From assembly GCA_047284725.1 (NCBI GenBank), contig JBJBEO010000001.1, positions 1,368,203 through 1,432,202 on the forward strand: 64,000 nt of DNA. Direction: 5' to 3'. The DNA is from Synechococcus sp. (GTDB lineage Bacteria > Cyanobacteriota > Cyanobacteriia > PCC-6307 > Cyanobiaceae). The notes beneath the pieces were generated by a model, which was not told the DNA's origin, searched no databases, and was given only the letters and a program-made list of their open reading frames with translations. The translations under genes and the position numbers were made by a program. This document shows, in pieces, positions 2,774 through 14,669 of this stretch (its first letter is position 1; every line of letters begins with the position of its first letter).

Positions 2774-3340
2774 GTGCGGGCACTTGCCACCTGGAGCGGC
2801 GCCCTAGCCGGACTGATGCTGATCCTGGTGGGAAGCCTGATTCCAGCAGCTCTGATCTGGCCTGGCATGCCTGTTCAGGTCCTGGCGATGCCCAGCACCT
2901 GGCAGGTCCCCGCCCTCTTGCTCTGTGCCCTGGTTTGTGGCCCACGGGCCGGAGTGATCGCAGCGACGGCCTATCTCACGGTCGGGCTTGTTGATCTTCC
3001 GGTGTTCCATGGTGGAGGTGGTCCCGGCTATCTGCTCAACCCAGGATTCGGCTATCTGGCTGGATTTGTGCCGGCGGCCTGGCTGTGCGGAAGACTGGCG
3101 CAGCAGGAGAAGATGAACGATGTCGCCCGCTTGAGCCTGGCTGCAATCGCGGGCCTGGTGATGCTTCAACTCTGTGGTCTGCTCAACCTCCTCCTCGGGG
3201 GGGTGCTTGGTCGCTGGCTGGAGCCTCTGCCGGATCTGATTTACCGCTATGGCTTGGGTCCCCTGCCCGCTCAGCTTGCCCTTTGTGTGGCAGCTGGACT
3301 CCTGGCTCACCCCATTCGCCGCCTTTTGCTGATCCAATGA
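2774..3340 (+). CDS. bioY: Biotin transporter BioY
   Basis: Hydrophobic; YLTVGLVDLPVFHGGGG...PGFGYLAGFV motif. Confidence 0.9.
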   Translation: MRALATWSGALAGLMLILVGSLIPAALIWPGMPVQVLAMPSTWQVPALLLCALVCGPRAGVIAATAYLTVGLVDLPVFHGGGGPGYLLNPGFGYLAGFVPAAWLCGRLAQQEKMNDVARLSLAAIAGLVMLQLCGLLNLLLGGVLGRWLEPLPDLIYRYGLGPLPAQLALCVAAGLLAHPIRRLLLIQ

Positions 3341-3840
3341 TGCGTATAGGTCGCAGGTTGGTTTTGCCGAGCCATCTCTCTCGCGGTCCCTTGCTGCTGC
3401 TCAGCAGCGTGATCGTGATGGTGGATCAGTTCAGCAAAGCCTGGGTACGCGATCAGTTGCAGCTTGGTGTTCCCAGTCCATTCCTACCGGGATTGCTGCA
3501 GTGGCGATGGGTGCGCAACACGGGTGCAGCCTTCAGTCTGTTCAGCGACTCCACACCAATGCTGGCGTTCTTGAGCCTGGCGGTGGGATTGATCGTTGCC
3601 CTTTGGATTTGGCGCAGTCGCCAACAACCTGTATGGCAGGGCCTGGCCATGGCTTTTCTGCTTGGTGGCACCCTCGGCAATGGCATTGATCGCTGGAAGC
3701 TTGGCCATGTGACCGATTTCATTGAACTCGTTCCAGTGTCATTTCCGATCTTCAATGGAGCTGATATCGCCATCAACCTCGCCGTGGTCTGCTTCGTGAT
3801 TGATGCCTTGAGCCGCCGCCATGAGTCTCCATCCGCCTGA
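3337..3840 (+). CDS. lspA: Lipoprotein signal peptidase II
   Basis: DQFSK, NTGAAFS, GNGIDR, VTDF, FNGAD motifs. Confidence 0.95.
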   Translation: MMRIGRRLVLPSHLSRGPLLLLSSVIVMVDQFSKAWVRDQLQLGVPSPFLPGLLQWRWVRNTGAAFSLFSDSTPMLAFLSLAVGLIVALWIWRSRQQPVWQGLAMAFLLGGTLGNGIDRWKLGHVTDFIELVPVSFPIFNGADIAINLAVVCFVIDALSRRHESPSA

Positions 3841-11580: not shown

Positions 11581-11623
11581 TGTGCCAATTGATACAAAAC
11601 AGCCCCAAAGGCCTGTTTACGGT
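11581..11623 (+). promoter_or_regulatory. NtcA-activated glnA promoter
   Basis: TGTG-CCAATTGA-TACA (11581-11596) with A-rich flanks; TACGGT -10 box (11618-11623) 22 nt after the TAC. Confidence 0.8.
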
Positions 11624-11659: not shown

Positions 11660-13081
11660 ATGGGTAAGACCGCACAGGACGTTCTCAGCACAATTAAGAA
11701 CGAAGGCATTGAACTGATTGACCTCAAGTTCACTGACCTGCACGGCAAGTGGCAGCACCTCACCGTCTGCGCTGACCTGGTCGACGAAGACGCCTTCACC
11801 GAAGGCCTTGCTTTCGATGGCTCATCCATCCGCGGCTGGAAAGGCATTCAGGCCTCCGACATGGCCATGGTGCCGGACGCCGACACCGCTTGGGTGGATC
11901 CGTTCTATCGGCACAAAACCCTGAGCATGATCTGCTCGATTCAGGAGCCACGCACCGGCCAGCCCTACGAGCGCTGCCCCCGCGCCCTCGCCCAGCGAGC
12001 TCTGAATTATTTGTCCAGCACAGGCCTGGCCGACATGGCCTTCTTCGGGCCGGAGCCGGAATTCTTCCTCTTCGACGACGTCCGCTACAACTCGGCCGAA
12101 GGCGGCTCCTTCTACAGCGTCGACACGATCGAAGCAGGCTGGAACACAGGACGCATCGAGGAAGGTGGCAACCTCGCCTACAAAATTCAGGAAAAAGAGG
12201 GCTACTTCCCTGTCTCTCCCAACGACACAGCCCAGGACATCCGCTCGGAGATGCTTCTGCTGATGGGGCAGCTGGGCATCCCCACTGAGAAGCACCACCA
12301 CGAGGTGGCTGGTGCAGGGCAGCACGAGCTCGGCATGAAATTTGCCGAGCTGATCCAAGCGGCCGACAACGTGATGACTTACAAGTACGTCGTCCGCAAC
12401 GTGGCCAAGAAGTACGGCAAGACGGCCACCTTCATGCCCAAGCCCGTGTTCAACGACAACGGTTCCGGCATGCACGTGCACCAGAGTCTGTGGAAGGGAG
12501 GACAGCCGCTGTTCTTCGGCGAAGGCACCTACGCGAACCTGTCGCAGACTGCCCGCTGGTACATCGGCGGCATTCTCAAGCACGCCCCTTCATTCCTGGC
12601 CTTCACCAACCCCACCACCAACAGCTACAAGCGTCTGGTGCCCGGTTTTGAAGCTCCGGTCAACCTCGTTTACTCAGAGGGCAACCGCTCTGCCGCCGTT
12701 CGGATTCCACTCACCGGCCCGAGCCCGAAAGCCAAGCGCCTCGAATTCCGTTCGGGTGACGCCCTGGCCAATCCTTATCTGGCCTTCAGCGCGATGATGA
12801 TGGCCGGTATTGACGGCATCAAGAACCAGATTGATCCAGGCGATGGCGAAGATCGCGACCTGTTCGAACTTCCGGCTGACGAGCTCTCGAAGATCGCCAC
12901 GGTTCCCGCCTCCCTGAACGGTGCCTTGGAAGCGCTGCGTGCAGACCACCACTACCTGCTCGAAGGCGGTGTGTTCACCAAGGATTTCATCGACAACTGG
13001 ATCGACATCAAGTACGAGGAAGTGCAGCAGCTGCGCCAGCGTCCCCATCCTCACGAGTTCACCATGTACTACGACGCCTGA
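11660..13081 (+). CDS. glnA: Glutamine synthetase type I
   Basis: [38 protein letters not shown]. Confidence 0.99.
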
Positions 13082-13106
13082 TCCCAGGGATCGGTGCTAA
13101 GGCCTC

Positions 13107-13137
13107 AAAAAAGCCCTCCCAATGGGAGGGCTTTTTT
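13107..13137. terminator. Bidirectional intrinsic terminator
   Basis: AAAAAA-GCCCTCCC-AAT-GGGAGGGC-TTTTTT between convergent genes. Confidence 0.9.
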
Positions 13138-13158
13138 CTGCCAAACCGAAGACGCAAC

Positions 13159-13419
13159 TCAAGCGTCGTGGCGGAGCTGCATCAAAGCACTGTCATGCAA
13201 ACGGCGTTCACGGGCATGACGACGCGACCAGGCTCTCTGCTGTGCAAGAGCACTGGCCCCGTCATCGAGATCGGGATGATCCTCGATCTGAGCCAGGGAA
13301 GCCTGATGCAACACCTCCTCTTTGCCGTGGTGGTCAGACCAGGCAACAAATTCGACAGCGGCACGGCGATGACGATCAATCACATTGCCGATACGACGAT
13401 CAGAACGCTCAACAGCCAT
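13159..13419 (-). CDS. 86-aa hypothetical protein, candidate GS-inactivating factor (gif-like)
   Basis: AGGAGG 7 nt before ATG, upstream NtcA box and -10, shares terminator with glnA. Confidence 0.7.
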   Translation of the reverse strand: MAVERSDRRIGNVIDRHRRAAVEFVAWSDHHGKEEVLHQASLAQIEDHPDLDDGASALAQQRAWSRRHARERRLHDSALMQLRHDA

Positions 13420-13449
13420 GGGGCAGCCTCCTGGAACCTGCCTCCACTC

Positions 13450-13470
13450 TGTAACAATCGCTACAGAATA
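13450..13470 (-). promoter_or_regulatory. Perfect NtcA box abutting a -10 element (repressor geometry)
   Basis: TGTA-ACAATCGC-TACA at 13450-13465; minus-strand TATTCT at 13470-13465. Confidence 0.8.
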
Positions 13471-13604
13471 TGCCCTATCTTGGAACTTCTTCACAGGTGA
13501 TGGGCGTCCCTCCCCGAAGGAATCTCCGAAAAGCGACCAGCCCACATCACACCATCGGCCATCCATCCGTTGGAATGGGCATTCCCTGATGAAGTTCGAT
13601 CGCG

Positions 13605-14669
13605 ATGGCGTCGCCCACGCTCACAGAGATCGTCTACCGCACACTGCAGCAGAGTCGCAGCCTTGCTGGTGTCGCCCACAAAGAGATCAGCACAAAGCTG
13701 ATGGAGCTGGTCGCTCCAGATGCCACACCTCAGACAGCGCCAGTGTCCACCGACATGCTGCTGCAACTGCGGCAATCCATGGCAGACCTTGAAGATCTCG
13801 ATTGGCGCGAGGCCCAACAAGGTGTCTATCCCACCAACCAGCTGTTTGACCTCCCCTGGCTGGATTGGGCAACCCGTTACCCGAAGCTCTGGCTTGATCT
13901 GCCGTCCACCTGGCACCGGCGACGTGATCGCAATGTGCGTGATCTTCCCGACGAGGTCGATGCAGCAATTTATCCCGATTATTACCTGCAGAATTTTCAT
14001 CACCAAACGGATGGTTATTTCAGTGACCACTCAGCTGAGCTCTACGATCTCCAGGTCGACATTCTCTTCAATGGCGCCGCAGACGCCATGCGACGCAGGG
14101 TCATCGCCCCCCTCAAGCGAGGCCTGCGGCATTTTGATGACCGCCCTGCCAACAGCCTGAAGGTGCTGGATGTGGCCACCGGGACGGGCCGAACGTTGCA
14201 TCAGATCCGTGGGGCGGTTCCTGACGCGACCCTGATCGGTGTGGATCTGTCCCAGGCCTACCTGAGGCAGGCCAACCGATGGCTGAACCAGGGCAGCAAC
14301 AACCTTGTCCAACTCCTGCAGGCCAATGGAGAAGCCTTGCCACTCACGGATGCGAGTGTTCAGGCCGTGACCTGTGTGTTCCTCATGCACGAACTCCCGG
14401 CCGACGCTCGCCAGGCCGTGATCAGCGAGTGCTTCCGCGTGCTTGAACCCGGTGGTGTTTTCGTGCTCGCCGACTCCATTCAACTTCAGGACTCACCTGA
14501 ATTCGAAGTGGCAATGGATAACTTCCGAAAGGCCTTCCACGAGCCTTTTTACCGCGATTACATCGGCGACAACATCGATCTGAAGCTGACGCAATCAGGG
14601 TTTATTGGCATAGCCGCTGAATCCCACTTCATGACCCGCGTATGGACCGCTACGAAGCCATCCCAGTGA
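13605..14669 (+). CDS. Class I SAM-dependent methyltransferase
   Basis: VLDVATGTG, YYLQNFHHQTDGY, VFLMHELP. Confidence 0.9.
   Translation: MASPTLTEIVYRTLQQSRSLAGVAHKEISTKLMELVAPDATPQTAPVSTDMLLQLRQSMADLEDLDWREAQQGVYPTNQLFDLPWLDWATRYPKLWLDLPSTWHRRRDRNVRDLPDEVDAAIYPDYYLQNFHHQTDGYFSDHSAELYDLQVDILFNGAADAMRRRVIAPLKRGLRHFDDRPANSLKVLDVATGTGRTLHQIRGAVPDATLIGVDLSQAYLRQANRWLNQGSNNLVQLLQANGEALPLTDASVQAVTCVFLMHELPADARQAVISECFRVLEPGGVFVLADSIQLQDSPEFEVAMDNFRKAFHEPFYRDYIGDNIDLKLTQSGFIGIAAESHFMTRVWTATKPSQ

Follow-up and report, generated by a model that had tools for sequence, protein, structure and literature searches.

We have identified here a small Synechococcus gene that lies convergent with glnA and carries a perfect NtcA box upstream of its start codon, and whose reading frame and box are both conserved among its relatives. 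The gene is located in a 64,000-nucleotide stretch of genomic DNA (hereafter the window). In our judgement the best overall explanation of the locus, to which we assign a probability of roughly 0.45, is that the gene encodes an NtcA-repressed two-helix protein that acts on nitrogen assimilation and has glutamine synthetase (GS) as its likeliest target. When nitrogen is scarce and 2-oxoglutarate is high, NtcA would bind the operator, block RNA polymerase and silence the small gene, and in the same condition would activate glnA, whose box has the spacing typical of activation. With abundant ammonium NtcA would dissociate, allowing the small protein to be translated from an mRNA with a short leader and a strong ribosome-binding site. 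Its arginine-rich C-terminal helix would then bind a second protein involved in nitrogen assimilation. GS would be the single most likely partner, making the small protein a functional analogue, and no relative, of the GS inactivating factors (IFs) IF7 and IF17.

A substantial part of the primary production of the ocean is due to marine Synechococcus and its relatives. With its NtcA operator and a position corresponding to that of gifA in Nostoc, the conserved small gene is a concrete and testable candidate for a nitrogen-excess regulator in this group. If the GS interpretation were true, an unrelated inhibitor encoded next to glnA would act when ammonium is abundant, in organisms that are held to lack IFs. 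Even if GS is not the target, the locus offers a clean example of a predicted NtcA-repressed promoter in the group and defines a new small protein family.

The glnA gene of the window (11660..13081, plus strand) encodes a type I glutamine synthetase of 473 residues, which a phmmer search aligns with the Synechocystis GS structure (PDB 3NG0) over residues 1-472 (E 6.8e-216, 720 bits). Its promoter region (11582..11623, plus strand) contains an imperfect NtcA box, GTG-N8-TAC (11582..11595), separated by a 22-nt spacer from a TACGGT -10 hexamer (11618..11623). This arrangement suggests the canonical NtcA-activated layout, the activated class II geometry being described in PMC8092223 as a box centred near -41.5. 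Downstream, 26 bases past the glnA stop codon, begins a perfect intrinsic terminator hairpin (13107..13137) that serves both strands and is common to glnA and the small gene. Its folding energy is -29.5 kcal/mol on the minus strand and -27.2 kcal/mol on the plus strand (z -4.35 and -4.61), a stability equalled by none of 200 shuffled sequences. On either strand the stem is preceded by A-runs and followed by T-runs, and models of leader RNAs match it on both strands with their terminator portions.

The small gene occupies 13419..13159 on the minus strand and specifies 86 amino acids followed by a stop codon. Its ATG is preceded at a distance of 7 nt by the Shine-Dalgarno sequence AGGAGG (13432..13427, minus strand), and the G-rich positions 35-37 of this region, counted from the start of the NtcA box, are kept in a matrix of 51 aligned loci. 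On the far side of the box, and divergent from the small gene, lies the gene for a class I SAM-dependent methyltransferase of 354 residues (13605..14669, plus strand; Pfam Methyltransf_25, 1.5e-20), for which no NCBIfam model scores over its cut-off. A further conserved block is present at 13560..13585 (plus strand; loci L001-L030), 25-45 nt before the methyltransferase start, with a minus-strand consensus near CCATTCCAAnGGAT; in the window it forms the palindrome GGAATG-GG-CATTCC. This block is probably the methyltransferase's own promoter or leader.

The 86-codon frame is present and open in all 36 of the other genomes of the genus. In a comparison of 50 orthologs, at 40-85% identity, the frame is open in every one and the differences fall most often in the third codon position (0.351, 0.372 and 0.588 for positions one to three). 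A profile search across the family detected the gene in 51 of 151 genomes, representing 21 of 64 genera. The search gave no hit in the Prochlorococcus-like genomes listed (1.3-1.8 Mb) or in some genera with genomes of Synechococcus size, and the gene was absent from all 24 genomes examined from other families of the class. Because the frame is open and conserved, the substitutions are biased to the third position and the relatives are confined to this lineage, we are highly confident that the ORF is a real, lineage-restricted gene, confined to picocyanobacteria of the Synechococcus/Cyanobium type. In a large protein collection the small protein has 14 relatives at 65-97% identity, all unnamed or annotated as hypothetical. 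Our full-text literature searches found no description of the gene, and we regard it as previously uncharacterised; we claim no novelty for the box itself, which the NtcA-regulon predictions for marine Synechococcus (Su et al. 2005, 2006) may list.

The box upstream of the small gene (13464..13451 as read on the minus strand, and readable in both directions) has the sequence GTA-N8-TAC. A perfect box is found at this place in 51 of 54 related loci, the exceptions being L042, L053 and L054. In the 51 loci the six contact bases are invariant and the N8 core varies, and since the contact bases are fixed while the core drifts the element reads as a protein-binding site. It thus has the hallmark of an NtcA-regulon member, a conserved GTA-N8-TAC near the promoter. 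The mere occurrence of such boxes carries little weight taken alone, the window holding two perfect copies against 0.61 expected and 13 of 100 shuffles reaching two. The second copy (14640..14653), inside the 3' end of the methyltransferase gene, acts as an internal control: it is kept in only one of 48 loci and is probably a chance match. The preliminary description of this DNA, which had been made from the letters of the sequence, was accurate in recording the 86-residue frame next to glnA, its ribosome-binding site at that spacing, the perfect box and the bidirectional terminator, and the conservation across Synechococcus that it proposed to check is borne out by the genomes of the genus.

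Conservation also ties the box to the small gene and not to the methyltransferase. We retrieved the methyltransferase locus from five genomes that do not have the small gene, and in four of them glnA directly precedes the methyltransferase. None of these four spacers (105-494 nt) contains the box. Since the box accompanies the small gene in 51 of 54 loci and is found in 0 of 4 spacers from which the gene is missing, it belongs to the small gene, and NtcA control of the gene is very likely. We also examined seven other perfect boxes of the genome (downstream of them lie genes for endonuclease III, a carbamoyltransferase, NarM, acyl-ACP reductase and L14, and two without a match), but the genes were assigned by crude gene calls and the set gives no useful calibration.

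The position of the box relative to the promoter bears on the direction of regulation. Our favoured -10 element for the small gene is CAGAGT (13451..13446, minus strand; CAGAAT in most relatives), which shares its first base with the end of the NtcA box. A hexamer of the form xAxxxT overlaps the end of the box in this way in 45 of 51 loci, and AGAAT follows the box exactly in 35 (individual bases A47, G43, A50, A44 and T45 of 51). A candidate start dinucleotide, CA, lies 7 nt past this hexamer (13439..13440, minus strand; box positions 25-26, with C in 34 and A in 40 of the 51 loci). Initiation near 13439, as this conservation suggests, would give a leader of 20 nt. As the conserved hexamer overlaps the end of the box and the CA follows 7 nt further on, the box would extend from about -25 to -12.

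The preliminary description had instead placed the -10 element at TATTCT (13470..13465, minus strand). That sequence does lie directly upstream of the box as described, but it is weakly conserved, ATTCT being exact in only 7 of 51 loci, though the left flank of the box is A/T-rich. With this hexamer transcription would start inside the box, a layout that we rank second and that has parallels in the same genome, where TATAAA, TATGAA or TATTTC lies shortly before a perfect box at three genes for DUF4278 proteins. At two of these, which carry glutamine-II riboswitches, TATAAA or TATGAA is followed by six bases, the perfect box and then the riboswitch; at the other, the fourth DUF4278 gene of the genome, TATTTC is separated from the box by one base. 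The third riboswitch gene is arranged differently, as box-AGAAAT-GGGG-TATACT. At all three glutamine-II riboswitch/DUF4278 genes a perfect box covers or immediately precedes the start, and so it does at the fourth DUF4278 gene, whose leader is riboswitch-like. The four loci lie near positions 387143, 797576, 1527267 and 1723212 of G000:C1 in this genome, and two of them are near-identical copies.

With either -10 layout the box, conserved in 51 of 54 loci, overlaps the candidate promoter element, and NtcA would sit on the core promoter of the small gene. This is the position described as repressing for gifA, gifB and pirA (Klahn 2018, PMC6212724; Bolay 2021, PMC8092223). Activator geometry on the small-gene side, sought as TA-N3-T 20-24 nt past the box, is found in none of the 51 loci. 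These features point to a gene that is probably repressed rather than activated by NtcA, and the predicted opposite control of the convergent glnA and small gene is well supported in silico.

Upstream of the box is a further motif, GTGAAG (13489..13494, minus strand), whose distance to the box is 14 nt in 23 of 51 loci, 24 nt in four (the window among them) and 13 nt in one. The 24-nt spacing is one helical turn longer than the 14-nt spacing. In the surrounding region (13480..13500; loci L006-L059) the motif is often the second copy of a direct repeat, (T)GAAG-N5-(T)GAAG, with GAAAG ten bases further up. It may possibly be the site of a second regulator, at about -55 to -40 from the candidate start.

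The small protein matches no Pfam or NCBIfam family at E values up to 10. AlphaFold2 predicts a pair of long helices (residues 13-46 and 57-85) connected through a conserved H-P-D loop, with a mean pLDDT of 78-83 and a pTM of 0.36-0.37; the low pTM would be in keeping with a hairpin dependent on a partner or on another copy of itself. The two halves of the family alignment match one another (hhalign probability 94.9%, E 4.8e-8, against 1% for a reversed control) and so represent an internal tandem repeat, with the pattern W-x3-H ... L-H ... L running along one helical face. Charge is unevenly distributed, the N-terminus and second helix being basic and the middle of the protein acidic. Across 54 members the median pI of the C-terminal 30 residues is 11.7, with five R+K to two D+E (medians), and R67 is kept in 52 and R83 in 51 of them. 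Over its full length the protein is not markedly basic (pI 6.0-11.9, median 9.29). Searching the model against the PDB with Foldseek gave no matches. A wide VIA-align search returned only generic coiled coils (Z up to 5.5), below the noise level of that tool for helical models, and a PDB sequence profile search returned one chance match (E 1); both were set aside. On the model, the small protein represents a new family of helical hairpins built from a tandem repeat, the C-terminal helix being rich in arginine.

The C-terminus of the small protein had been likened in the preliminary description to the core of IF7, and the protein interpreted as a divergent IF. Neither claim survives profile comparison. 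An alignment of 50 family members was compared by hhalign with 18 IF17-like proteins from other cyanobacteria, which consist of DUF4278 plus an IF7-like C-terminus, or with the IF7-like last 68 residues of these proteins, and gave a probability of 0.1% (E ~0.5). The best ungapped profile segment against the IF7-like region scores 11.2, where the shuffled mean is 12.6, and 718 of 1000 column shuffles are as good. DUF4278 (PF14105) is not detected in the small protein at E values up to 10, nor in any of the 54 members at E values up to 1, under conditions where positive controls reach 7.7e-23 and 2.3e-20; Pfam has no model for the IF7-type GS-binding region. By these comparisons the small protein stands outside the IF7/IF17 family. 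The alignment with IF7 is a compositional likeness only, of arginine, histidine, glutamine and alanine in a helix, and it is in composition alone that the 54 members have an arginine-rich basic segment like that of the IFs.

The closest analogy for the locus is with gifA of Nostoc sp. PCC 7120, which encodes IF7 (IF7A). As described in PMC11288750, gifA is convergent with glnA, an arrangement that the preliminary description had correctly cited for Nostocales, and has an NtcA site in repressor position. Opposite regulation to glnA is known there and predicted here, and in both cases the product is a small protein with an arginine-rich helix. The two systems differ in that the proteins have no sequence or profile similarity, in that the Synechococcus genes are separated by a strong two-way terminator, and in that in some relatives islands of 3.3-17.2 kb lie between them. 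Because of this terminator and these insertions, Nostoc-type antisense read-through is unlikely to be a conserved function here. PMC11288750 describes the tail-to-tail gifA arrangement as seemingly exclusive to Nostocales. Among 29 other cyanobacterial glnA loci we observed three IF17-like genes (DUF4278 plus an IF7-like region), one in each of two genomes of a single non-Nostocales genus, where it is tail to tail with glnA, and the third elsewhere, in tandem upstream of glnA; the genes lie at 3177..3800 (minus) of L131, 770..1246 (plus) of L135 and 3335..3766 (minus) of L109.

The gene also resembles gifB, which encodes IF17, and the genes for DUF4278 'IF17-like' proteins of marine picocyanobacteria described in PMC6212724, in having an NtcA box on or near the start, a small product and an expected expression under nitrogen excess. 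Unlike the DUF4278 group it lacks DUF4278 (0 of 54 members) and a glutamine-II riboswitch, has a predicted leader of only ~20-31 nt, and is expected to adopt the two-helix tandem-repeat fold. Neither a glnA nor a Glutamine-II riboswitch is found in 12900..13800 at E values up to 10, the three Glutamine-II copies of the genome being elsewhere. PirA (Ssr0692) is, like the present protein, small and confined to cyanobacteria, and the NtcA sites of its promoter are described as compatible with repression (PMC8092223). PirA differs in being reported in the same source as absent from marine picocyanobacteria; the likeness drawn here is one of size, distribution and promoter.

The idea that the small protein inhibits GS rests on analogy and is, taken by itself, tentative. 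In its favour are the resemblance of the locus to the Nostoc glnA/gifA pair, the presence of IF17-like genes tail to tail at 2 of 29 glnA loci, the arginine-rich helix, the recurrence of NtcA-boxed small-protein genes in this genome, and the reported lack of the known factors from the group. Against it, the constant neighbour of the gene is the methyltransferase, glnA is separated from it by islands in some relatives, a 73-residue homolog is unlinked to glnA, several Synechococcus-like genera and all of the small genomes searched lack the gene, and the genome already carries published IF17-like candidates (DUF4278 with riboswitch). The residues of Synechocystis GS that we take to be the contacts with the IFs (E419, N456 and R459) map to N, Q and R in the GS of the window. 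These residues are uninformative here because, according to section 2.3 of Bolay 2018, IFs bind GS through arginines and the GS contact residues co-evolve and are not conserved.

IF7, IF17 and PirA are reported missing from marine picocyanobacteria in PMC6212724 and PMC8092223, and GS regulation in this group is called unclear in PMC6316151 (section 2.7). Against this background it is conceivable, though distinctly speculative, that picocyanobacteria of the Synechococcus/Cyanobium type evolved an unrelated GS inactivating factor as a convergent replacement for IF7/IF17 and that it was lost again in Prochlorococcus.

The same promoter evidence would serve equally for an NtcA-repressed regulator of nitrogen excess with another target, such as PII, PipX, NtcA or an enzyme like N-acetylglutamate kinase, which would make the protein an analogue of PirA. 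The reported absence of PirA, a small NtcA-repressed PII binder, from these organisms (PMC8092223) leaves that niche open too, and adjacency to glnA is loose within the genus, glnA lying within a 1.5-kb flank of the small gene in only 14 of 30 loci (some of which are cut by contig ends). There is nothing in the data specific to PII or another such partner, and the place beside glnA appears ancestral, being kept in 17 of 25 loci of other genera; we consider this alternative improbable. The convergence with glnA noted in the preliminary description thus holds for the window, while strict adjacency is not general, as these counts show. In five of five complete genomes in which glnA is missing from the 1.5-kb flank it remains convergent at a distance of 3.3-17.2 kb, across a stretch of variable genes.

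Insertions recur at the glnA/small-gene junction, a hot spot for them in genomes G016, G009, G002, G024 and G015 (for example positions 1..1500 of L006 and of L024). Among the inserted genes are one for a repeat protein and one for a small protein of secreted appearance; the small gene keeps its place next to the methyltransferase. In one genus, with genomes of 2.2-2.4 Mb, there is a divergent two-repeat homolog of 73 residues (2896..3117 of L136, plus strand; 2937..3158 of L137, minus strand) that has no NtcA box, glnA or methyltransferase nearby and adjoins a gene for a small secreted protein rich in glycine and valine.

The constancy of the methyltransferase, which adjoins the small gene and diverges from it in all 30 loci of the genus and in 22 of 25 loci from other genera, and which remains attached to it when islands split both off glnA, raises the alternative that the small protein is the regulator, substrate or subunit of this enzyme and that glnA is merely an old neighbour. 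In four of the five genomes examined without the small gene, the methyltransferase nevertheless adjoins glnA and so can do without the small protein. In the one genus with a divergent homolog, that homolog is located elsewhere, and neighbourhood alone is weak evidence; we judge a partnership with the methyltransferase to have a rather low probability.

It is less plausible again that the box is mainly an activator site for the methyltransferase and that its overlap with the small-gene promoter is secondary. On the methyltransferase side 7 of 51 loci, all of one clade, do have TA-N3-T at 21 nt from the box, and a conserved CTTCAC is found at a spacing of 14 nt in 23 of the 51. The activator geometry is missing from the other 44 loci, the window included, no box precedes the methyltransferase in the four genomes without the small gene, and the separate conserved block close to the methyltransferase start is ~100 nt from the box. 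These observations favour assigning the box to the small gene.

Histidines are frequent in the family (median eight per member): of 54 members, 51 retain H31, 53 retain H48 and 50 retain H75. D50 and E23 are conserved too, and each repeat contains an H-x-H-E-x-x-L-H-like stretch. A metal-binding or redox-active helical hairpin with an indirect link to nitrogen might account for these residues, but no more than 25 of the 54 members retain the symmetric H38 and H68, the conserved histidines would be far apart in the hairpin model, and no metal-binding family is matched, leaving this explanation a slim chance beside that of a protein acting on nitrogen assimilation.

That the ORF is untranslated and the locus yields a small RNA or nothing, as the shortness and lineage restriction of the family and the lack of any proteomic evidence seen by us might suggest, is very improbable given a frame open in all 50 orthologs despite their divergence, the excess of third-position differences, a conserved ribosome-binding site and residues conserved along helical faces.

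Contigs from cDNA libraries are compatible with transcription of the small gene and are no proof of it. Two contigs from one study cover the ORF without differences (13138-13420 and 13139-13428), but the two runs behind them are flagged 'probably DNA', and any of the contigs described here could be DNA carry-over. A third, from a second study (13163-13401), has six differences and a depth of 6.2, compared with mostly hundreds over glnA in the same run (up to ~990 per bin). The contigs end at 13420 and 13428 and restart at 13489 and 13600, and the terminator is uncovered; such gaps prove nothing and we have not used them as evidence.

The confinement of the family is evident also from a full scan of 1.84 billion cluster representatives, in which the matches form only 68 clusters at 50% identity and the true ones are all 55-150 residues long. 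The ESM Atlas held nothing for the small protein, and a tblastn search of phage genomes gave no match to it. One apparent match of 627 residues with seven matching stretches (P0073) was rejected as a family member, being a spurious match to an unrelated repeat. Another cluster representative, P0077 (136 residues), combines a FolD-like C-terminus with the family's first repeat and is most likely the product of a frameshift or an assembly chimera, and no true fusion.
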